DNA of 46,862 bases, from IMG/VR virus record IMGVR_UViG_2721755711_000004. The stretch is one strand, 5' to 3'. Position 1 is the first letter of the stretch, and the number at the start of each line of letters is the position of its first letter. A program made the translations under genes and the position numbers. The DNA comes from a virus (Duplodnaviria > Heunggongvirae > Uroviricota > Caudoviricetes). The notes under the pieces are model-generated. The model was not told the origin of the DNA. It did not search any database and was given only the letters and a program-made list of their open reading frames with translations. Shown here piece by piece: positions 1-42,112 of this stretch.

Positions 1-1284
1 TTACAGACTTCTGGAAGGTTGCGCAGCTCTTACAACACGCGGTTGATCTTCCGCAGCGTCTTCCAGCGCACTTAAATCACGGTCTTTCACCTCTGGCATT
101 TTCAGCGCAGAGATTAAACCAATTACTGAATATGCCATGATCATAATGGCGATCGGATACCAGGATTCCGTCATGGTGCAGAAAATACCCGCCAGGATAG
201 GACCAAAACCGGAAGCGATAAGACCACCAATTTCTTTTGAAATAGCCATCCGGGTAAAGCGGTTTTTACAGCCGAACATTTCTGCCATGGTAATGTTTTC
301 CAGAGCAAATAATCCCAGCACCGCACAGTTATGAATCACAATCAGTGCAACCATAATGGTGCTCGGGGCATAGCTTTTATCTACGATGATAGAAAGCATT
401 GGCCACGCCAGCACAATCGCAGAGGTATTCATAATAATATACGGGATCCGGCGACCAATTTTATCGGATAACCAACCAAGGAACGGAATGGTCATAAAGC
501 CGAGAATCGAACTGATCATCAATGCATCTGTTGGAATTGCTTTGTTAAACAATAACGTCTGTACTAAATAGCCTGCAAGGAAAGTCTGAATTAAACCGGA
601 GTTACCCGCCTGACCAAAACGCAGCCCTGTTGCCAGCCAGAAGGATTTGCTCTGGAACATGCTACCAGCAGGTGCAGGTTTTGCTGTCGGTTGGTTGCTG
701 TCGTTAACCTTCTCAAAGACCGGGCTTTCTTTCAGATTCATACGCAACCAGATAGCAAAGACCATCACGACAACGCTCGCCAGGAACGGTATACGCCATC
801 CCCACGCCAGCAGTTCCTCTTTACTGAGAATGAAGAACATAAAGGCCCAGATTGCCGTTGCGCTTAAGGTTCCGCAGTTAGTTCCCATAGCCACAAATGA
901 GGAGATAATTCCGCGCTTACCTTTTGGCGCATATTCCGCCAGCATCGTACCGGCACCGGAAATTTCCGCACCTGCACCCAATCCCTGAATAATACGCAGC
1001 GTCACCAGCAAGATGGGTGCAAAAACACCAATCTGTGCATAGGTCGGTAACACTCCAATTAAGGTGGTACAGATCCCCATCATGGTGATGGTAATAAAGA
1101 GCACTTTTTTACGCCCTATTCTGTCGCCCATTTTGCCGAAAATAAATGCTCCGACAATACGCGCCACATAACCTGCACCATAGGTTCCCATTGCCAGAAT
1201 TAACGCCATTGCCGTTGATGATTCAGGAAAAAATATTTCATGAAACACTAACGCTGCGCCGAGCGAATATAACTGGAAATCCAT
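1..1284 (-). CDS. ydfJ: MFS transporter (metabolite:H+ symporter type), 3' portion of a host gene split by prophage insertion
   Basis: 427-aa ORF with multiple hydrophobic segments and MFS-like motifs (GxLxDRxGRKK). It begins inside what is normally TM1 of this family, with an in-frame stop two codons upstream of the first Met, consistent with a 5'-truncated gene. Stop codon sits at window positions 1-3. Confidence 0.75.
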   Translation of the reverse strand: MDFQLYSLGAALVFHEIFFPESSTAMALILAMGTYGAGYVARIVGAFIFGKMGDRIGRKKVLFITITMMGICTTLIGVLPTYAQIGVFAPILLVTLRIIQGLGAGAEISGAGTMLAEYAPKGKRGIISSFVAMGTNCGTLSATAIWAFMFFILSKEELLAWGWRIPFLASVVVMVFAIWLRMNLKESPVFEKVNDSNQPTAKPAPAGSMFQSKSFWLATGLRFGQAGNSGLIQTFLAGYLVQTLLFNKAIPTDALMISSILGFMTIPFLGWLSDKIGRRIPYIIMNTSAIVLAWPMLSIIVDKSYAPSTIMVALIVIHNCAVLGLFALENITMAEMFGCKNRFTRMAISKEIGGLIASGFGPILAGIFCTMTESWYPIAIMIMAYSVIGLISALKMPEVKDRDLSALEDAAEDQPRVVRAAQPSRSL

Positions 1285-1887
1285 AATTCACAGGTGTTTT
1301 TTCCCATCCTGTGGTTTCCTTGGCGTTTTCTAGGTTTTTTCAGATAGTTGCATTTTTTAAAAAGCATCCTAAGTTCGATCTCAGTGTCTATCTGGGGCCT
1401 ATTTCTGTCCCATATATGCCCCAAAAAAACTCCCCAACAGATAAGTAGTTTTTTCATGGATTTATGCGTAAAATCAAGAACGGCTGGAAATCATTCAATA
1501 CTCACACTATCGAAAAATTTACCAGCCAACCGCAGCACGTTCTTGCATAAGGCGTGTCTGCGGTTTTTCAACTATTCAGATACATCACTCCCATCACATT
1601 CATTCCTCCGCATCAAAGGCATATAGGCTATATCACCTTGATATTTTTCTTCTTCAGATAAAAACTGTTATCTATGTATACTTTTAAACCCAATCCGTGT
1701 AGAGTCTCTGCATAAGATAGTTTGCAGTTGCCGCTTCAGCTTGCGCCATAAACCGCCTGATTTTTGCTGCCACCTGCTAGCATTCCTGTATACCTGAAAC
1801 GACAATGTTTATCTACGAACTTTAAGAACACCCAAGATAAAAATTGTCAACTATATCATATATAACACATTACTAATTCGAGGCTAT

Positions 1888-2001
1888 ATGAACAGCATAC
1901 TGATAATCACTTCTCTCCTTATCATATTCAGCATTTTTAGTCATGCCCTAATAAAATTAGGGATTGGCATATCCAATAACCCAGACAAAACCGATGTATA
2001 A
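1888..2001 (+). CDS. hypothetical small hydrophobic protein (37 aa), speculative
   Basis: ATG at 1888 preceded by GAGG 6 nt upstream; translation [37 protein letters not shown] has one predicted TM segment. It lies in AT-rich intergenic DNA, so it could be a chance ORF. Confidence 0.2.
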
Positions 2002-2069
2002 GTCAACATATCCTGAATCAGACATACAATATCGCAATGAAAATCAATAATATTTTAAGGAATATCTTC

Positions 2070-2303
2070 ATGAAATCAAAAGACACCCTAAAGTGGTTCC
2101 CTGCGCAGCTTCCTGAAGTAAGAATTATCCTAGGGGATGCTGTAGTGGAAGTAGCAAAACAGGGAAGACCTATTAATACCAGAACATTGCTTGATTACAT
2201 TGAAGGAAACATAAAGAAAAAATCATGGCTGGATAACAAAGAATTATTACAAACAGCGATATCAGTTCTTAAAGACAACCAAAATTTAAATGGTAAAATG
2301 TAA
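2070..2303 (+). CDS. ydfK: YdfK/YnaE-family small prophage protein
   Basis: 77-aa ORF (MKSKDTLKWFPAQLPEVRIILGDAVVEVAKQGRPINTRTLLDYIEGN...) with AAGGA 9 nt upstream of the ATG; occupies the same position between ydfJ and pin as in Qin. Confidence 0.7.
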   Translation: MKSKDTLKWFPAQLPEVRIILGDAVVEVAKQGRPINTRTLLDYIEGNIKKKSWLDNKELLQTAISVLKDNQNLNGKM

Positions 2304-2619
2304 TATAATAAACTTACTTTTTTATCATTTTTCCACTTTAACAACATTTTGCTCCACTTTTCCACGTCCAAACAACTTGAAATCTGGTTAAAATAACACG
2401 CAACACTATTCTTCTTCCTTGAGTCCGCCCGGAACTCGAAAAACAAACCGAGTTAAAGCCATTTTTCACAAAATCGATTTTGGGTCTCACCAAAATTACG
2501 GGGTTGCATACGCATTCGTTTATTTTCGAACGTGTACATACAAATATGCACAAAAATAATCATAATTATTTTCTGAGATGCATTATGATATGAACACCAA
2601 TTTCGAATAGAGTCTCACT

Positions 2620-3210
2620 ATGTCTCGAATTTTTGCTTACTGTCGGATATCAACGCTGGATCAGACCACCGAAAATCAACGCCGGGAAATCGAAAGTGCA
2701 GGTTTTAAAATCAAACCTCAGCAAATAATCGAAGAACACATTAGCGGCTCAGCAGCAACCAGTGAGCGTCCTGGTTTTAACCGGTTGCTTGCTCGCCTGA
2801 AATGTGGTGATCAATTGATTGTGACAAAACTGGATCGCCTTGGTTGTAATGCAATGGATATCAGGAAAACAGTGGAACAACTGACAGAAACAGGTATCAG
2901 AGTGCATTGCTTAGCATTGGGTGGCATTGACCTGACCAGTCCAACAGGAAAAATGATGATGCAAGTAATTTCAGCAGTCGCTGAATTTGAACGAGACCTT
3001 TTACTTGAACGCACTCATTCCGGGATAGTAAGAGCCCGCGGCGCAGGGAAACGTTTTGGTCGACCACCTGTGTTAAATGAAGAACAGAAACAGGTGGTAT
3101 TCGAACGAATTAAGTCAGGTGTAAGTATAAGTGCCATTGCCCGGGAATTCAAAACCTCGCGGCAAACCATTTTAAGAGCCAAAGCAAAACTTCAGACACC
3201 TGACATATAA
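2620..3210 (+). CDS. pinQ: serine recombinase, Pin/Gin/Hin-type DNA invertase
   Basis: 196 aa with the N-terminal resolvase catalytic motif (YCRISTLDQ) and a C-terminal HTH; sits next to the tail-fibre genes as in Pin/Gin inversion systems. Confidence 0.85.
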
Positions 3211-3307
3211 AAAATAATCTCGGTGTGAGATGCTTTACGTGTTCCAAGCCCCCTTCCTTGCCGTAAATGGAAAGATACATCTAATTATAGAATTTATATG
3301 TTTTACC

Positions 3308-3883
3308 CTACGGCAGTGCTGGCCATTCAATATCCTGTGCAGTTGACGTATCAACACGGTTCAGCAATACCCGATACTTTTTCCATGCTTCCAGCAACGA
3401 GATTTCTTCCTCCGTTGCAATTTCCAGATCTGCAGCATCCTGAAGCGGCGCAATATGCTCACTGGCTACCTGCATCAGGTTGTTTTTTGTTTCTTCCGCC
3501 TCCCGGATCCGGAACAGTTTTTCTGCTTCCGTATCCTTCACCCAGGCTGTGCCGTTCCACTTCTGAAACTCCCCTTCCGGCGATAACCAGGTAACATTTT
3601 CCGGTAACGGACCGAGTTCAGAAATAAATAACGCGTCGCCGGAAGCCACGTCATAGACGGTTTTTCCCCGATGATCTTCAACGAGATGCCACGATGCCTC
3701 ATCACTGTTGAAAACAGCCACGAAGCCTGCCGGAATATCTGGCGGTGCAATATCGGTACTGTTTGCTGGCAGACCTGTATGAGGCGGAATATATGCGTCA
3801 CCTTCACCAATAAATTCATTAGTTCCGGCCAGCAGATTATAAATTTTTATGGTCTGTGGTTGTTCACTCATTCTGAATGCCAT
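3308..3883 (-). CDS. tfaQ: tail fibre assembly protein
   Basis: 191-aa ORF immediately downstream of stf with a 1-nt stop/start overlap; typical Tfa position and length. Confidence 0.8.
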
Positions 3884-28132: not shown

Positions 28133-28339
28133 CTTCATTTTCACTTTTTTAAATCCAACGACAGACGGCTGGCATTTAAGTATTGTGAAATATTATCAAA
28201 TGTAATCATCATTGATTTACAAAAGATACATTTTGCCCCGAAAGGATTCATGTCAGAAACATCAAAAGATGATGTTCTATACTGGGAACCATGACAACAC
28301 GGGCATCTAAAGTGAATATGGTTTGTAATATTGTCTACC

Positions 28340-28552
28340 TCAAAGCGCCACTACATGAACAGCGGCAGGGCCTTTAGGTCCGTTCTCAATACCAAATTCA
28401 ACTTCCTGATTCTCAGTTAATGTTTTGAAATCGTTGCTCTGAATTGCTGAGAAATGGACAAACACATCTTTGCTGCCATCTTTCGGCGTGATGAAACCAA
28501 AACCTTTTTCAGGGTTAAACCATTTCACTAAACCAGTCATTTTGTTAGACAT
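28340..28552 (-). CDS. cspI: cold shock protein (CspA family)
   Basis: 70 aa, [45 protein letters not shown]..., with RNP1/RNP2 motifs. Confidence 0.9.
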
Positions 28553-28914
28553 AATTATTACCTTTTGAAGAAATTAGCCCTTGGGCAGAATGGTCCGAAA
28601 AAAAATATCAGAGAGAAAAACCAACAAGGAAATCTCAAGAGGTACAAATAATAAAATTATAACAATGACTGCTTCAGATAAATTTGTAACAAACCAGAAC
28701 ACCATTAACGCATGATTAACCACCCATAGCAAGGATTACTTTTGTAAAGAAAAACACAGCAATGAAAGAATAGCTTTATTTATTAATAAAACGTGTCATT
28801 CTGATTAAGACCTTTTATCTTACCCTTAAGATTTCAGGAATTTTGACTCATGGAAGAGTCCTTTTTATTTAAATTTTACATTCCGCGATGTAAATGTTCC
28901 GATTTAATATTACC

Positions 28915-30940: not shown

Positions 30941-31223
30941 TTGAGATTGTGGTGCTTTTTGTGGGAGTCATCCACTTACGCACTTTGTTTTGCCATGCCA
31001 GCAGTTAGCTTCTGCTGTAAAACTATTCATGCAGCAAACCTGCACTTCACCACAATGGTTAGCATACTTTTCCTGATTAAGATTTTGCCAAATATGCTGG
31101 CCATTGTTTCATGTATTGGACCTCCTTAATTTTTATTAAAGAGATCCAATATTCACTACTCTGTCCGTATCTCTACTCAGGCATCAGCCTTCTTCGTTAT
31201 CGTATACAGACGAGCGATGAATT

Positions 31224-31439
31224 TTAATCAGTAATGATGACATTTGCTGCTGCAGGACCTTTAGCACCACTCTCTATAGAGAAGGTAACCTTTTGACCTT
31301 CAAATAAGGTTCGATAATTATCATTCTGAATCGCAGAAAAATGCACAAACACATCTTTACTACCATCAACAGGAGAAATAAAGCCGAAACCTTTATCAGC
31401 GTTAAACCATTTTACTAAACCAGTCATTTTATTTGACAT
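31224..31439 (-). CDS. cspB: cold shock protein (CspA family)
   Basis: 71 aa, [53 protein letters not shown]... Confidence 0.9.
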
Positions 31440-31749
31440 TCTACATTCCTTAACTTGAGCCTTTCGGCATAAATGGTTTGCATAACAGAAACGACTTCGT
31501 ACTTAATTGGAGAGACTCAAAGAAGGAATAAGTGAATAACACCTGAAATGAGAACTGCTTTAGTAAACTACTTCGTATATCGTCTGTTCTTCAAACCGAC
31601 GCAGTCATTAACTCATAGTTGAACATATGAAGCAATGTTTATTTTAGACATCCAGCCACCTTCAACCCTATCAAAAAAGTAGTTTTCTCCAGGAACGTGT
31701 GTATGGTGCACCAGGTTATCAGTATTAAGGAGTTTTTCTGTCCCCTAAA

Positions 31750-34210: not shown

Positions 34211-34377
34211 CGGTTGTCTCTGCTGGCGCAGCAGGTGCCAGTTGTTCAGGCTGGCGTGCGAATTGTAAACCAGAATGCCAGGAAAAAACAAAACCCGCCG
34301 AAGCGGGTTACGTGCGGGTGCGTTGAGGATGCCTGACACATCAGAGGTGGCGAGGGATTTCTCCCCCGCCAGGTCTC

Positions 34378-34533
34378 TTACTCCTCAGGTTCGTAAGCTG
34401 TGAAGACAGCGACCTCCGTCTGGCCGGTTCGGATTCGTACCTCGCAGAGGTCTTTCCTCGTTACCAGTGCCGTCACTATGACGGTTAAACAGATGACGAT
34501 CAGGGCGATTAACATCGCCTTTTGCTGCTTCAT
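34378..34533 (-). CDS. hokD: Hok-family type I toxin
   Basis: 51 aa, MKQQKAMLIALIVICLTVIVTALVTRKDLCEVRIRTGQTEVAVFTAYEPEE; the track ORF extends upstream in frame to 34590. Confidence 0.85.
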   Translation of the reverse strand: MKQQKAMLIALIVICLTVIVTALVTRKDLCEVRIRTGQTEVAVFTAYEPEE

Positions 34534-35200
34534 AGCCTGCTTCTCCTTGCCTTTCGGCACGTAAGAGGCTAACCTAGATTTGCCGTTCATAGATTGAGCC
34601 TCAGATTAATGTTAAGCGTCTTGCAGGACGCGTAATGTTAACTGGGGCTTTTCTCTATCTGCCTTTGGTGTTCATGCCTGAGACAGATAGCCTCAAGCAC
34701 CCGCAGCCATTCTACTTAACTCCCGTTACCTCGCCAATATGAAATCAGTCAGAAAGGCGATCCATAAGAACAACAGCAAGGCAATAAATTGCCATTACAG
34801 CAGCAATAGCCAGCGCACATTTGAGAACCAGCACCACAACCTCCTGTATTGGACGTACACCAGTCCTGATAAATATGAGGCTGTCTCGTCAGTGATTCAA
34901 TACAACTATTGGGTATAGTTTCTGTGATTTTGTTCTGTAGAAATGGAACATAATAACCTGTCACCACCAGCACTTCTTTAAATACGCCAAGTCCGACGCA
35001 AGCTAACCTTCTAGCCCGCTTTGAGCGAAGAACGGACTGAGTAATTCAGGCCGTTAGCGACACTATGACATCATTAGCAACCAACTAGGAGTTGGTAATA
35101 GATGAGTTAATTAATTGATTAAAAACCGACGATTTTACTAGATTACGGGAAGAAGAAAGGCCGCTGGTACGGCCTCCCAGAGACTAGTCTATTGTTATGC

Positions 35201-35398
35201 TTAGAAACGCTTTTCTATCTCTTTTTCTCTTTCGTTTATTGCATCGTCAATGATTTTTTTTGCTGAATTAATTTGTGGTGTTTTTTCTGGTAATACATCT
35301 TCAAGATCTTTGGCAATTTTCTTTAATTTATCGATTTCTTTAGTTAAATCAGTTACAGATTTATCCGCTATTGACTTTGTCATTTTTCCATATTCCAT
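35201..35398 (-). CDS. hypothetical small charged (coiled-coil-like) protein
   Basis: 60-65-aa ORF in very AT-rich DNA, Lys/Glu/Asp rich, followed by a hairpin (AGGCCG...CGGCCT) on the minus strand. Confidence 0.35.
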   Translation of the reverse strand: MEYGKMTKSIADKSVTDLTKEIDKLKKIAKDLEDVLPEKTPQINSAKKIIDDAINEREKEIEKRF

Positions 35399-35592
35399 TC
35401 AATTTATTTATCAATCAGTTACCCGTAAACCTTATCATGGATTCCAATTATCGACAGCTGGGATTTTTACTTTCTTGATCTGCCCCAGGCGAATGACATA
35501 TCCCCATTAACCAATGTCCGCTCCTAGCACTTAGTAGACATTAATAGATTGTAAGCGTTCCCGTCATGTAGCGGTCACCGATTGGTGATGAA

Positions 35593-35952
35593 TTGAAGCG
35601 GATCATTGATGAAAGTCGCAATAACGTGGCCAGCCCATTTATCGTTCACCAGATCCCGGAACGGCAGGTTAAACGCAGCAAAGAAGTTTCTCATCCCACT
35701 CAAGTTGCACCAGACTATTTGAGTCGGTCGTTTTCAGCTACGCGTGACAAGCTGGGTTTATATGACAAACGGCCGATGGATGAAAGGCCAACCTTTCACG
35801 AAATTCGCGCCTTAGCAGCACATCTTTTTGATCAGCAGGGCATCGATCCACAAGGACGAATGGCACACAGCGATGCGAAATCAACTAAAATCTACACGCA
35901 AAACCATATCGACTGGGTTGTAGTTCCACATGGAGAAATTAAAGCCAGCTAG
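35593..35952 (+). pseudogene. tyrosine integrase C-terminal fragment (remnant, intK-like position)
   Basis: 119 aa containing catalytic-domain motifs (HEIRALAAHLF...GRMAHSDAKSTKIYT) but lacking the N-terminal two-thirds of an integrase. Confidence 0.6.
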
Positions 35953-36039
35953 CACCAAGTAAGGCATAGAATTTTATTAACCAAGGAGCATATGACCAGT
36001 AATTAATTCTTACCGGAAAGTTAGCCCTGCTAAAATTAA

Positions 36040-36086
36040 TATTAACAAATAAAAAAATAGGGGCAAATATTTATATTTGCCCTCGC
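36040..36086 (-). terminator. rho-independent terminator downstream of the NTase/2-TM operon
   Basis: Hairpin GGGCAAATAT-TTAT-ATTTGCCC followed on the minus strand by a run of seven T. Confidence 0.5.
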
Positions 36087-36093
36087 AACATAT

Positions 36094-36676
36094 TTATCTT
36101 CTTTTCAGTTCCTTGGGAAGAAAAGCATCTATTTCTTCTTCAGAAAATGTTAAATCTTCTTTGTTTTTTAATGCGTCCTGTGCTTTTTTATAAGCTTCAA
36201 ATGTTGTACTAGGAGAGCCTGAATACACTGAATGTAAACTCTCGAGTAACGAATCCCGCTCTGACTGCAATTGCTCGATTGGTTTTTCACCCATTGCTAA
36301 GTCTGTAAGCAATGATAAATACTTTTCTCGGATTAACCAGATCTCATTTGCAGCCTGCTTATGTTTTTGCGCCAACTCACCAAGGTCATAATCTTTGGTA
36401 TAAGCGTTAAGAATGAGAAGCAGTGTTGATACAACAATCCCAACCCCCGTGCCTACTTCACCCGCGCCGAAAAAAGTTGCTAGAAAGCCTCCAGTAGTTA
36501 AGGCGGAGAGAATTATTTGCCAAAACTTTATAGAAGATAGTCGAGATAGGAGAATGTCTGAGCATTTTTCATGCGTCTTATGTGAGTAAACGACCCGACC
36601 ATAACACTCTCTGATCTGCCCTTCTAAAACCCTTCTAGATTCAGGTGTATCCTTAGTCTGGAAATGTTGATCCATA
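36094..36676 (-). CDS. two-TM membrane protein, SLATT-like predicted effector
   Basis: About 194 aa from MDQHFQTKD... (GGGAG RBS 5 nt upstream); two adjacent hydrophobic helices (FWQIILSALTTGGFLATFF and GVGIVVSTLLLILNAY) followed by a helical C-terminal region. Overlaps the upstream NTase gene by 24 nt. Confidence 0.6.
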
Positions 36677-37534
36677 AATCTCCCGCCATTTTTGCTTAGC
36701 CGACCATTCGCGTTTTGGGGTCGCCATTTCATGCTCTATAGCTTCGAGTGAAATGTTATAGCACCGTTTTGCTTTATATTGGAAAAGCCCTTTACCATAG
36801 ACATACTGACCACTTCCTGGCGCTTTCCAATACTCCTTACTCGTATCTTGATCAGCCATCCATTTGAAGAAATCACGACTCATGAAATCGTAGTAAAGAT
36901 ACGACTTATCTCTATGCGCCCAATTTTCAATGAATTGATACGCAAGCGTATCAATGAGTAAACCACTTACAGGTACATCCCATTTACGCTTCCAAGCTCT
37001 TGCCATTCTACAAAGTTGCACCAAATTGTTATTGGTAATGTTATTTCTTAACCTCATTGCAGAAATTTCTGGCTTTGGATTTGTAATCCTCCAACGGCCA
37101 CCACCGTTCGCATCAGGAAATGTGTAACTATCACTAACATTGAGGAAAGCTGGAACGACTTCAAATGTAATTCCATCATTGAACGGTACAAGGATCACTT
37201 GACCGTCACCTCTAATACTAGTGGTAGCATAGGTTTTTTCAATAGATCTCTTAACCGCTTGAAGCAATGCTGACTGCCCATTTCCTAAGTAGCTATTGTA
37301 TTTTTGATACTCGGAATATGGTAGCTGAAAAATCATATCCAGATCGCTCAAGCCTTGCGTAGCTGTGTTCCGACCATATGATCCAACGTAGAGACTATGA
37401 GAAGTATCAGAACTGCTATCCCAAAAATCCGTATTTAAACGCTTCGTTATATTCCTATATCTAGTTGAAATTGTTCCACCATCTTTTACAGTAAGATTGG
37501 AGCAAAATCCGCAAAACCACTCAGCTAAACCCAT
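36653..37534 (-). CDS. minimal nucleotidyltransferase (pol-beta superfamily; CD-NTase/SMODS-like)
   Basis: About 293 aa; motifs GSYGRNTATQGLSDLDMIF (GS...DxD) and ITFEVVPAF (third acidic residue on hxhEhhP). ATG at 37534 with AAGGAA upstream; the track ORF starts at a TTG two codons earlier. Confidence 0.65.
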   Translation of the reverse strand: MGLAEWFCGFCSNLTVKDGGTISTRYRNITKRLNTDFWDSSSDTSHSLYVGSYGRNTATQGLSDLDMIFQLPYSEYQKYNSYLGNGQSALLQAVKRSIEKTYATTSIRGDGQVILVPFNDGITFEVVPAFLNVSDSYTFPDANGGGRWRITNPKPEISAMRLRNNITNNNLVQLCRMARAWKRKWDVPVSGLLIDTLAYQFIENWAHRDKSYLYYDFMSRDFFKWMADQDTSKEYWKAPGSGQYVYGKGLFQYKAKRCYNISLEAIEHEMATPKREWSAKQKWREIYGSTFPD

Positions 37535-37847
37535 GCTCAATTCCTTTTCTAAAATCTAATGAAAAATTCAAGGGCGCATGTTCCATGCATCATTGATAAC
37601 TTTTTTCAGTCAGCTAGAGCAACATAATTGATACTAACTAGCTGTTTCTTCAAGTGAGTAACCTACTTTAGCATCAAGGTATTATACCTACCAAGCATGG
37701 GGAGAAACCACCACTTAAGCCATTGAAGTATATAGAGCAGATTTTGTTGAAAAAGCACTGTTTGTTTATACATATGAATAGTGCTTTTAACCAGCAATAG
37801 CGCGGCTCTCAGCGTTTTACAAGCAGTGTCATGGGGTGTCGGGGATC

Positions 37848-37876
37848 GGAAGTTCAAATCCTCTCGTGCCGACCCA
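37848..37876 (+). other. tRNA-like 3' fragment (T-arm-like GTTCAAATCC plus acceptor-like stretch ending CCCA)
   Basis: ggaaGTTCAAATCCtctcgtgccgaCCCA resembles a tRNA T-loop and 3' acceptor end, but no matching 5' half or D-arm is present upstream. Confidence 0.25.
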
Positions 37877-37888
37877 AAAGATTATATA

Positions 37889-37916
37889 AACCAGCCTGTT
37901 ATTGCTGGTTTTTTAT
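37889..37916 (+). terminator. rho-independent terminator-like hairpin
   Basis: AACCAGC-CTGTTATT-GCTGGTT followed by TTTTT, immediately after the tRNA-like fragment. Confidence 0.45.
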
Positions 37917-38101
37917 GCCTACCTTCCTGGTAGGGAAGCTATGGGGAATTACTGGGGAATCCCCCCTTTACCTGCTCCCATTAAACTAACATAGCACGAT
38001 GTAAGCAACTTCCGCTTCTGGCACAAAGCGGACAACCACGCTAGCTCTACCCTGTGCCACAAAATGTCAATTTACATCTGAACTAATGCACTTTAATCTC
38101 G

Positions 38102-38524
38102 TCACTTCAAAAAATACCGAACATCCCCCTGATAAAACGACAATATCCGCTGCATAACTTCGCTTTTACGACACTCAGTACAAATTATATTATGACGCCT
38201 GTCGTAACGACGTATTTCTCCATCAGGTAATGACCAGATAAGGTCCGGATCAACCGCAGATGGTTTCTTCAGCTTTGCCCTTGAGAGCTTTTTACGGGCA
38301 TTTTGCCAGTCCTTACGCGCCTGTTCAGACGGGAATAACCCGTAACCAGAGTTGTATACATCGCCACTGGCAACCAGCTCTCTGGCCAGAACGCTCATCA
38401 GATATCTTGTTGCCCCAGTTTTAGCTTCCAGTTGTCGTAACGTCTCGCGCCCACTCTGGCGTACGAGTTCAAGAACCTGCCCTTTAATTTTTTCCCGCTC
38501 TTCTTGTGTAAAAACTTTTGCCAC
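38102..38524 (-). CDS. hypothetical protein
   Basis: 140-aa ORF downstream of the O-like gene, with a C-terminal CTEC motif; no recognisable family from sequence alone. Confidence 0.5.
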   Translation of the reverse strand: MAKVFTQEEREKIKGQVLELVRQSGRETLRQLEAKTGATRYLMSVLARELVASGDVYNSGYGLFPSEQARKDWQNARKKLSRAKLKKPSAVDPDLIWSLPDGEIRRYDRRHNIICTECRKSEVMQRILSFYQGDVRYFLK

Positions 38525-38564
38525 AAGCCCTCCTGAAAATTACCTCATGACCAGAAATACACAC

Positions 38565-39641
38565 TTACCCCCTGAAGCCCGGTGGAATTTCGGTATCCGG
38601 TTCAGAAATATGATTCACACAACGCTGGTTGTTCGTACCGCTTACCGGGAGCAACCAGGGGTTTTCAAAATTCCGGTCCGGTCCAAAAAACGTCGTCGCT
38701 CGCTGAACAAATTCCGTTCCCGTTTTCCCGGTAGCCGCCAGGTATCTTGCGTAACGCCTCACACCATCCAGCATGGCCTCTGGTGGCACCCCCTCGCGTA
38801 ATCTGGCCTTCCAGGCACTGAAAGCGGATTTCTTCGGGTTTGCCCCAGCACGCAACGGGTATTCCCGCCAGACCTGTTCGAACACATCCGGATAATCTAC
38901 TCGCCCCACAGGCTGCCCGGTGTTTTCCGGGACTACCCGATCGGCTTCCCGCTGAATGGCGGAATCGGCTTCAGGCTGCTGCAGTTGGTGTGATTGCTCC
39001 GGCCTTGCGGTCATCACCTGCTGCACAGCGCCCGAATCGGCTTTCAGCGCATACGCTGAATCGGCTTCCGGTGTCGTGCCTGCTGGCTGACCAGGATTGA
39101 CGGTCTGAACATCCCCTGCCTGGTTCGTGGCGTTTTTTACGCCATGGACCATAGTGTTTTGATCTTCTTGATCTGTATCTTTATCTGTATCTTTATCTGT
39201 CGTGACTCGTCGTGACATGTGCGTGACATTTCGTGACGCGCCGTGACAATCGCCATTTTGTTCCCGCTTTCTTTCCCTCTCTCGCTGCGCCCTCTTGCGC
39301 TCTGCAGGAGATTTTGCGGTTTGCGAAATATTGCCGTTGTCCTCTTTAAGCACCTGGCGTTTTTCCCATCCAGTGATTAAATCACCATCAAGTACCCGCC
39401 CCTGCATCGTCTGCAAAATTGAATCAATTATCTCTTCTGTCACGTCGAGCGCACTTGCCAAATCTTCTGTCGTGACATCAATGTGACCTCGCGTGACATT
39501 GCGTGACGCGCTCACCAGGAGGTGGATATACACTGCCATCACTGTTGCAATTGGCTGCCCTGACACCCTGGCAATTGTTCGCCACTTAGGGTCATTTGGC
39601 ATGTCATGCCATAATCTGAGCCAGGCGTTAGCCATACTCAC
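38565..39641 (-). CDS. replication initiator, lambda O-like (contains the origin iterons)
   Basis: 358 aa with an N-terminal DNA-binding-like region; two clusters of GTGAC iterons and an AT-rich repeat lie inside the coding sequence, as for ori-lambda within O. Confidence 0.7.
   Translation of the reverse strand: MSMANAWLRLWHDMPNDPKWRTIARVSGQPIATVMAVYIHLLVSASRNVTRGHIDVTTEDLASALDVTEEIIDSILQTMQGRVLDGDLITGWEKRQVLKEDNGNISQTAKSPAERKRAQRERERKREQNGDCHGASRNVTHMSRRVTTDKDTDKDTDQEDQNTMVHGVKNATNQAGDVQTVNPGQPAGTTPEADSAYALKADSGAVQQVMTARPEQSHQLQQPEADSAIQREADRVVPENTGQPVGRVDYPDVFEQVWREYPLRAGANPKKSAFSAWKARLREGVPPEAMLDGVRRYARYLAATGKTGTEFVQRATTFFGPDRNFENPWLLPVSGTNNQRCVNHISEPDTEIPPGFRG
39201..39247. repeat. iteron array A: five direct CGTGAC repeats at 10-11 bp spacing
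   Basis: CGTGAC at 39201, 39211, 39222, 39232 and 39242; preceded by a three-fold ATCTGTATCTTT repeat (39165-39200). Confidence 0.6.
39441..39507. repeat. iteron array B: direct GTGAC repeats plus one inverted copy
   Basis: GTCACG (inverted) at 39441; CGTGAC at 39471, 39492 and 39502; GTGAC at 39483. Confidence 0.55.
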
Positions 39642-42054: not shown

Positions 42055-42112
42055 TTTCTGGTGACGTTTGGCGGTATCAGTTTTACTCCGTGACTGCTCT
42101 GCCGCCGTTTTT
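42055..42112 (+). ncRNA. dicF: DicF small regulatory RNA
   Basis: TTTCTGGTGACGTTTGGCGGTATCAGTTTTACTCCGTGACTGCTCTGCCGCC followed by a T-run matches the DicF sRNA as recalled; lies between ydfC and dicB. Confidence 0.8.

Follow-up and report, generated by a model that had tools for sequence, protein, structure and literature searches.

The 46.9-kb window analysed here (46,862 nt; IMG/VR record IMGVR_UViG_2721755711_000004, whose coordinates are used throughout) contains what appears to be a complete, Qin-like lambdoid prophage, inserted at ydfJ/rspB with rspB on one side and a truncated ydfJ on the other. Positions 35037-38010 of this window probably constitute a single accessory cassette that occupies a slot between the hok locus and the DUF977 gene. 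The working cargo of the cassette, composed of a SMODS-family CD-NTase gene and a SLATT_4 effector gene, is predicted to be a minimal type I cyclic-oligonucleotide-based anti-phage signalling system (CBASS), and it arrived as the integrase–attP (phage attachment site) fragment of another temperate phage. What is new here is the pair of 22-nt hairpin repeats in inverted orientation, TCCGCTTTG[T/A]GC[C/G]ARRAGCGGA, located at the two ends of the slot. These repeats delimit the slot, and cassettes would be swapped at them. We estimate the probability of this reading as a whole at about three in four.

The slot lies between hokD and the DUF977 gene, which is the last gene of the replication block, and both neighbours are encoded on the minus strand. 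The region spanning 34300-38600 is 100% identical to that of Escherichia coli strain 99COLEC (NZ_CP070902.1). To define the borders of the insert, the window was compared with three prophage loci from IMG/VR (L005, L006 and L007; other loci are numbered likewise) that share its backbone and carry other cargo. Similarity of 94-97% extends up to 35029-35036 and is found again from 38001-38011, and the variable cassette at 35037..38010 measures 2,974 nt. The original prediction had proposed an AT-rich insert at 34591-38100. The portion at 35037-38010 stands, whereas 34591-35036 and 38011-38100 are backbone, because homology with prophages that carry other cargo covers both segments. The sharp drop in base composition described there is real, with a GC content of 0.400 in 35037-38010 and 0.408 in 34591-38100 against 0.490 for the whole window. 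Only 4% of sliding windows of equal length are as AT-rich as the insert (4th percentile). The others fall in the csp/lysis region at ~25.5-30 kb, which is comparably AT-rich, so the drop is not unique.

A 22-nt repeat sits exactly at each of the two breakpoints. The right boundary repeat (38011..38032, minus strand; TCCGCTTTGTGCCAGAAGCGGA), at which homology resumes, is a P-type 22-mer that matches the consensus exactly and forms a hairpin with a 7-bp stem and an 8-nt loop (-6.7 kcal/mol). The left boundary repeat (35015..35036, plus strand; CCCGCTTTGAGCGAAGAACGGA), at which homology with other prophages ends, is a degenerate D-type 22-mer. These two borders are the only matches to TCCGCTTTGWGCSARRAGCGGA with up to three mismatches in the window, where 0.01 matches are expected by chance. 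Consensus sequences for the two types are TCCGCTTTGTGCCARRAGCGGA (P) and TCCGCTYYTCGCTCAAAGCGGA (D), with almost invariant centres GTGCCA and TCGCTCA. P is similar to D read as its reverse complement, so each cassette has inverted repeats at its ends. Short direct repeats at the insert boundaries, for which a search had been suggested, were looked for and none was found. Text searches of the literature for the 22-mer sequence returned nothing relevant.

The same repeats border other cargo in the same slot, and the expectation of a variable accessory or defence locus with cassette replacement agrees well with what we observe. The whole 34300-38600 arrangement occurs in only 10 of 5,426 complete E. 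coli genomes (the collection used for all genome counts given here), whereas the flanks match in more than 5,000. Among IMG/VR loci, 80 encode a DUF977 protein that is at least 92% identical, and the 71 of these in which both flanks are present fall into 23 cargo configurations of 0.5-6.7 kb between identical flanks, mostly AT-rich. When viewed in the DUF977 orientation, all 23 cargo sets begin directly after a repeat of the P type, diverged or not, and most end directly before a recognisable D-type repeat. Longer slots are arrays in which P–cargo–D units follow each other at a distance of ~20 nt, such that D–20 nt–P doublets lie between cassettes.

Across 203 loci (2.6 Mb), 57 distinct cassettes bracketed by P and D repeats were identified. 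For eight of these, the outside flanks are of more than one kind, and in such cases similarity ends at the repeats. Conversely, 23 different cassettes share one flank on the DUF977 side, and 25 share one on the hok side. The CBASS block itself offers an example of this behaviour: between the window and a second context for the block (L002, considered below), both repeats agree in their inner halves and differ in their outer ones.

Cassettes bracketed by these repeats are also present in unrelated prophage backbones. In P2-like prophages they lie between the tail-fibre assembly gene and the sheath gene (G–FI), which we take to be the Z/fun position of the P2 map. Further copies lie between the umuDC-like and yedK-like genes in a Mu-like prophage, and another lambdoid backbone has them too. 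Near-perfect copies number 1-4 per genome in E. coli and are found in 2,428 of the 5,426 genomes. A scan of one genome per species recovered the exact 22-mer pattern in many Enterobacterales, in similar arrays. Near-perfect P-type hairpins were additionally observed at 112 places on E. coli plasmids (e.g. NZ_CP141792.1, 69689-69712), one of them under a ydfV annotation, and these may represent phage-plasmids that have a cassette slot of this kind. A 22-mer identical at the 20 specified bases also recurs densely in the intergenic spaces between ordinary genes on the chromosomes of Xanthobacteraceae, Pseudolabrys and Hyphomicrobiales. This alphaproteobacterial version (e.g. L229 1-8000 and L280 1-8000) often has a second type, TCCGCTTTGGGTCAAAAGCGGA, as its partner at a distance of 45 nt.

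A role for the repeats in cassette exchange is favoured because breakpoints fall on the repeats, repeat-delimited units move between backbones, and unrelated phage families share them. Cassettes would be swapped by recombination at or within the 22-nt repeats during phage co-residence or co-infection, with phage-encoded Red/RecET-type short-homology recombination or a site-specific recombinase as the candidate agents. We hold with moderate confidence that short-homology recombination at the hairpins during co-residence is the most likely route.

Several results weigh against this account and against the reading of which it is part. The left repeat at 35015-35036 does not fold as a canonical hairpin. 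If each cassette brought a palindrome of its own that became split upon insertion into a palindrome of the backbone, the expected empty site would be TCCGCTTTGNGCNCAAAGCGGA, which has no exact match in IMG/VR. Cassette inversion by P×D recombination was not detected, as none of the 57 cassettes occurs in both orientations. Covariation of the inner half-repeats across the two ends is not significant over the same 57 cassettes (shuffle p = 0.06, Fisher p = 0.14), although the pairs in three of them seemed compensatory (AGCAGA/TCTGCT twice, AGAGGA/TCCTCT). There is no recombinase with a consistent link to the repeats. A promoter scan upstream of the SMODS gene yielded no convincing promoter. Finally, such repeats are absent from the source contexts of the CBASS fragment (L211, L009 and the free phage Eeyore, described below), and thus its first capture would have needed another, probably illegitimate, event.

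One candidate recombinase for the cassettes is a 200-aa tyrosine recombinase with a Pfam Phage_integrase domain only and no N-terminal domain, encoded at L031 9322-10027 and also in L005, L095, L135, L156, L180 and L194. In these few loci its gene always lies between a D repeat ending in ...CTCATAAGGGA and a P repeat starting with GCAGCCCTGTG..., whose outer halves are unusual. A remnant of this recombinase was noted at L002 9808-9900, adjoining the CBASS block in its second context. The possibility that the 200-aa integrase of L005 is kin to the integrase remnant of the window was also considered, and tblastn gave no match.

The main rival explanation considers the hairpins to be passive. They could be REP-like (repetitive extragenic palindromic) elements that stabilise or insulate mRNA, or weak terminators, and they would lie at cassette borders because insertions elsewhere are harmful. 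Turnover of cargo would then proceed by homologous recombination in the long flanks together with rare illegitimate events. The dense repeat between ordinary genes in Xanthobacteraceae and Pseudolabrys is what such an explanation would lead one to expect, as are the lack of a linked recombinase, of an empty site and of significant cross-end covariation, and the repeat-free source contexts of the CBASS block. However, a passive role accounts poorly for identical cassettes that reside between different outside flanks with similarity stopping at the repeats (8/57), and for the preservation of the inner half-repeats of the CBASS block between the window and L002 when the outer halves differ. It also accounts poorly for repeats held in common by unrelated lambdoid, P2-like (G–FI) and Mu-like (umuDC–yedK) backbones, and the low copy number in E. 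coli is not that of a genome-wide REP element. We therefore judge passive hairpins to be somewhat unlikely, although a serious contender.

A more ambitious proposal would extend exchange at the repeats to a general system. The P (TCCGCTTTGTGCCARRAGCGGA) and D (TCCGCTYYTCGCTCAAAGCGGA) hairpins would be the recombination sites of an undescribed cassette system, common to lambdoid, P2-like and Mu-like enterobacterial prophages, that moves defence genes and other cargo between unrelated backbones. Their relationship to the REP-like repeat of soil Alphaproteobacteria would imply a conserved hairpin-recognising protein or nucleic-acid mechanism. We consider this extended proposal unlikely.

The cargo of the cassette is a two-gene operon on the minus strand that is predicted from sequence to be a minimal type I CBASS. 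The first gene (36653..37534) encodes a SMODS-family CD-NTase (Pfam PF18144, 2e-50, profile positions 1-164) that matches the PADLOC Cyclase model PDLC00786 over 292 of 293 positions (1.4e-143). Its translation contains the nucleotidyltransferase motif VGSYGRNT...LSDLDMIF (GS...DLD). The stop of this gene overlaps by 23 nt the start of the second gene (36094..36675), which encodes a SLATT_4 two-transmembrane (2TM) effector (Pfam PF18186, 6e-74; PADLOC 2TM effector PDLC00696, 1.4e-84). Directly after the SLATT_4 stop, an intrinsic-terminator-like hairpin (36061..36082, minus strand) comprises a 9-bp stem followed by the T-run CTATTTTTTT. The solved structures nearest to the SMODS protein are the CD-NTase-type nucleotidyltransferases PDB 6P8U and 6P82 (5e-9). 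A sequence search of PDB with the SLATT_4 effector found no solved relative, and no ligand-binding domain could be assigned to it. The operon is assigned to type I because the cassette contains neither Cap2/Cap3 genes (type II) nor HORMA/TRIP13 genes (type III), its only other open reading frames (ORFs) being a 60-aa ORF and the integrase remnant.

By analogy with other members of the CBASS family, infection is predicted to cause the SMODS CD-NTase to make a cyclic oligonucleotide, which would activate the co-translated SLATT_4 two-transmembrane protein. The active effector would then damage the inner membrane, such that the infected lysogen dies before the invading phage finishes its cycle (abortive infection).

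Alternatively, the AT-rich block could be a decaying, functionless remnant that merely hitch-hikes with a pseudogene. The block does adjoin an integrase pseudogene, it is found in less than 1% of genomes, and the hok–DUF977 interval that carries it is interrupted by an insertion sequence (IS) in two genomes (IS421 in NZ_CP027355.1 and IS1203 in NZ_CP045827.1). Decay is nevertheless quite improbable, given that both CBASS ORFs are intact and full length, with the GS...DLD motif, full-length profile matches and no frameshift in either gene. In addition, the SMODS protein is 95% identical to the copy in L211, and the operon keeps its own terminator.

The remaining elements named in the original prediction, a small charged ORF, an integrase C-terminal fragment and a tRNA-like fragment with a terminator, are present in the cassette along with the operon, and two of them point to where the operon came from. 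The tyrosine integrase pseudogene (35553..35952, plus strand) comprises the 3ʹ third of the gene without the N-terminus (Pfam Phage_integrase positions 110-168). It keeps ~130 C-terminal residues and is annotated by RefSeq as a frameshifted partial pseudogene. At the amino acid level it is 85% identical to the C-terminal part of an integrase that a prophage at proL/yejO (L009) encodes in full length. On the opposite side of the operon, a segment derived from the attP of a proL-integrating phage (37698..37914, plus strand) contains a piece of tRNA-Pro and a terminator hairpin. The tRNA-like piece (37828-37879, plus strand; 52 nt) is 94% identical to the 3ʹ part of tRNA-Pro as found at proL across thousands of E. 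coli genomes. It is considered a fragment because neither ARAGORN nor Rfam calls a tRNA gene there. The hairpin that follows it (37888-37911; -7.0 kcal/mol, z = -5.5) is succeeded by a T-run. An Rfam scan of 34900-38150 at E ≤ 1 returned nothing but a chance match to an L20 leader.

An int–cargo–att order of this kind is that of one end of a whole phage. The IMG/VR prophage L211 encodes a full-length 392-aa integrase, whose C-terminus is near-identical to the remnant, directly followed by SLATT and SMODS genes. This contig ends inside the proL fragment and is 92% identical in nucleotide sequence to window 35577-37874. In the free phage Eeyore, a homologous integrase gene is followed within ~220 nt by a segment homologous to 37698-37914, which corresponds to attP and includes the phage-borne copy of the tRNA 3ʹ end. 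L009, too, has a homologous segment, at its proL/yejO junction. Taken together, the integrase remnant, the operon and the tRNA-like piece are thus one contiguous int–attP-end fragment of a proL-integrating temperate phage that was transplanted into the slot. The suggestion that the integrase remnant and tRNA-like fragment mark the insert as foreign is thereby borne out. In the source phage, CBASS occupies a moron position between int and attP.

The remainder of the cassette (35037-35576, ~0.5 kb) is unrelated to the phage fragment and is joined to the cut int gene in all 47 genomes examined for it. It contains a charged ORF of 60 aa (35201..35383, minus strand; RefSeq hypothetical protein WP_000167380.1), which reads as a possible coiled coil, has no Pfam, PHROG or PADLOC family of note, and is followed after its stop by a hairpin and T-run at ~35150-35176. 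A third degenerate palindrome at 35517-35538 was considered as an internal sub-cassette boundary and is unsupported, as the piece with the 60-aa ORF never occurs apart from the integrase remnant. The CBASS block is found anywhere in 45-47 of the 5,426 genomes, and these copies are 99-100% identical. In ~35 of these genomes the 2,974-nt block is 99.6% identical and resides in a second context (L002), beside an island integrase and a lambdoid tail-fibre region. This context is unrelated to that of the window, and the block has thus moved as a unit.

The original prediction offered a nested acquisition or a cassette exchange as the origin of the insert. In the nested form, an island of integrase and CBASS would have inserted site-specifically at a tRNA-like attachment site and later lost part of its integrase. 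Such an event is very improbable even though the integrase fragment and the tRNA-Pro 3ʹ fragment lie on opposite sides of the operon, in the usual layout of tRNA-targeting islands. The window holds a single proL core, and direct repeats are lacking at the borders of the insert. The ends of the block coincide with the 22-nt repeats that elsewhere enclose integrase-free cassettes, and an unrelated 0.5-kb piece is fused to the cut int in 47 of 47 genomes. Moreover, the order int–cargo–att corresponds to an end of a whole phage, as in L211, L009 and Eeyore, and not to a self-contained island, and no Qin-like prophage with a full-length integrase and two proL-core repeats around the block was seen among the 5,426 genomes.

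Some further resemblances between the boundary hairpins and tRNA-Pro sequences were noticed. RefSeq annotates an 82-nt ‘tRNA-Pro’ at L010 5959-6052 (NZ_CP049967.1) that consists of a boundary hairpin, a 20-nt linker and a 48-nt proL 3ʹ (attP) fragment, and ARAGORN finds no tRNA at this location. When inspected by eye, the hairpin loop GGCACA of L010 could pair with the 3ʹ strand of the tRNA acceptor. The P and D repeats, again by eye and post hoc, resemble the acceptor/T-arm (3ʹ ends) of proL/proM, a similarity on which we make no claim.

The slot that received the CBASS block is an accessory-gene slot that appears rich in defence genes. In E. coli genomes, cargo between hokD and DUF977 includes, by RefSeq name, AbiH with a hypothetical protein, a RelA/SpoT-domain protein, and a small integrase with hypothetical proteins, and one long array carries relBE, flxA, an ISNCY remnant, Kiwa and QueH. 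About half of 20 tested cargo proteins match PADLOC models, including AbiH, Tmn, PDC-S15, NsnABC, Hp1-3 and an argonaute (Aga)-associated REase-like protein. The proposed label of a defence hotspot is therefore fair with respect to AbiH, Tmn, NsnABC, Kiwa, PDC-S15 and others. The label is incomplete because several cargo sets are not obviously defensive, such as those with a BCCT transporter and DUF2254 protein, NUDIX and HAD proteins, or DUF5677 (all by Pfam), as well as QueH. A 3.65-kb cassette encoding the BCCT-family transporter and DUF2254 membrane protein (slot 1-3651) is common to five slot configurations (L055, L032, L051, L054 and L056). It is always the first cassette after DUF977, and differing second cassettes come next.

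Comparison with the Qin prophage of K-12 (hokD-relEB-ydfV-flxA-ydfW-ydfX-dicC) clarifies which of its genes correspond to this slot. The two prophages share the ydfJ/rspB site and the backbone genes dicB, dicF, ydfABC, hokD, ydfU, ydfT, csp and lysis genes. In K-12 Qin the replication genes have been lost along with DUF977, whereas the prophage of the window looks complete from integrase through tail fibres. The original prediction regarded relBE of K-12 as alternative cargo at the same site. That view does not hold: relBE is not an allele of this slot because homology between K-12 Qin and the window ends at 34547 (K-12 L003 15289), inside the hok/sok leader, where relE begins. This insertion point lies ~490 bp to the left of the slot. 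The K-12 cassette of the same kind is instead flxA, located between the same boundary hairpins (L003 15983 and 16974) in the opposite orientation. Truncation of an ancestral hokD locus by relBE has been reported (PMC6379469), and our comparison agrees. In K-12, relBE replaces everything to the right of window position 34547, which leaves its hokD without sok and the upstream region, whereas the window keeps an intact hok/sok locus (Rfam, 110 bits).

The slot is flanked by conserved prophage backbone. On the left, the hokD toxin gene (34378..34533, minus strand; Pfam HOK_GEF, 3e-23, and RefSeq annotation) is preceded by the sok antisense RNA and hok leader (34528..34702, minus strand; Rfam RF01794, 110 bits, gathering score 59), for which conservation among prophages that carry different cargo is 94-100%. 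The stretch from hok/sok to the slot is an unannotated backbone segment (34703..35014; ~310-330 nt) with 86-100% identity (mostly >91%) beside at least 23 cargo sets. This segment includes a promoter-like site at 34737-34709 (minus strand), which could be the promoter of the hok mRNA, and two terminator-like hairpins at 34780-34810. On the right, the DUF977 gene occupies 38102..38524 (minus strand; Pfam PF06163, 1.9e-29, and annotation). According to annotation, the gene order of the prophage is integrase, excisionase, exonuclease, dicB/DicF, a repressor pair, YdaT, replisome organizer and DUF977, and beyond the slot follow hokD, ydfU, the Q antiterminator, csp, lysis genes, terminase, head and tail/tail fibre genes. 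Gathering-level Rfam matches elsewhere in the prophage, at 3342-3540, 28313-28698, 31208-31600 and 42056-42107, represent IS009 RNA, two cspA thermoregulator leaders, which lie upstream of prophage csp genes, and the DicF small RNA.

Type I CBASS and prophage defence hotspots are already known, whereas the boundary hairpins could be new. The slot adds a well-delimited hotspot to those already described in prophages, and the lambdoid prophages that carry it, of the Qin and Rac types, are very common in E. coli. Because its borders are known to the base, the slot can be mined for new anti-phage genes, and several of its cargo sets have no family assignment. The CBASS block also demonstrates one way in which a defence operon can travel: taken from a temperate phage along with its integrase and att end, the operon came to rest in the accessory slot of a second phage. 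Should the hairpins be active exchange sites, they would offer a simple sequence signature by which accessory cassettes could be located in many families of phages, as well as a tractable system for the study of phage-hotspot turnover.

The operon resembles known type I CBASS with a 2TM effector in its two-gene organization, its SMODS protein with a GS...DxD motif, the overlapping SLATT 2TM gene and the full-length PADLOC matches. It differs in that neither protein has a close solved relative (5e-9 for the cyclase, none for the effector). The repeats in turn bear some likeness to integron attC sites and to REP/REPIN elements, in that unrelated cassettes are separated by imperfect palindromes and the D–20 nt–P arrangement resembles REP doublets. 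However, the present system has no IntI-type integrase, no attI and no Rʹ/Rʹʹ GTTRRRY cores, and its palindromes span 22 nt rather than the 57-141 nt of integrons. As to REP elements, the repeats are at low copy in E. coli (1-4 per genome) and dense between genes in Xanthobacteraceae, and no RAYT transposase was found near the hairpins in the fetched loci, a small sample searched with an approximate query sequence.

As a hotspot, the slot resembles those described at P2 old/tin and in P4 by Rousset et al. 2022 (PMC9122126), where conserved phage flanks surround many AT-rich cargo sets, many of them anti-phage, and where no such repeats are mentioned. The present slot differs in lying within the early-right operon of a lambdoid prophage, between the replication block and hok/ydfU/Q and not next to cos, in having 22-nt hairpin inverted repeats as borders, and in carrying non-defence cargo as well. 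The closest conceptual parallel is found in the PeSL cassettes of T4-type phages, in which a short stem-loop likewise brackets unrelated accessory ORFs (Arbiol et al. 2010, PMC2839356). PeSLs are direct repeats that contain an early promoter, and they have been proposed to mediate ORF shuffling in the hyperplastic regions of lytic myoviruses (PMC2839356). By comparison, the repeats reported here are inverted, contain no recognisable promoter and belong to temperate enterobacterial phages.

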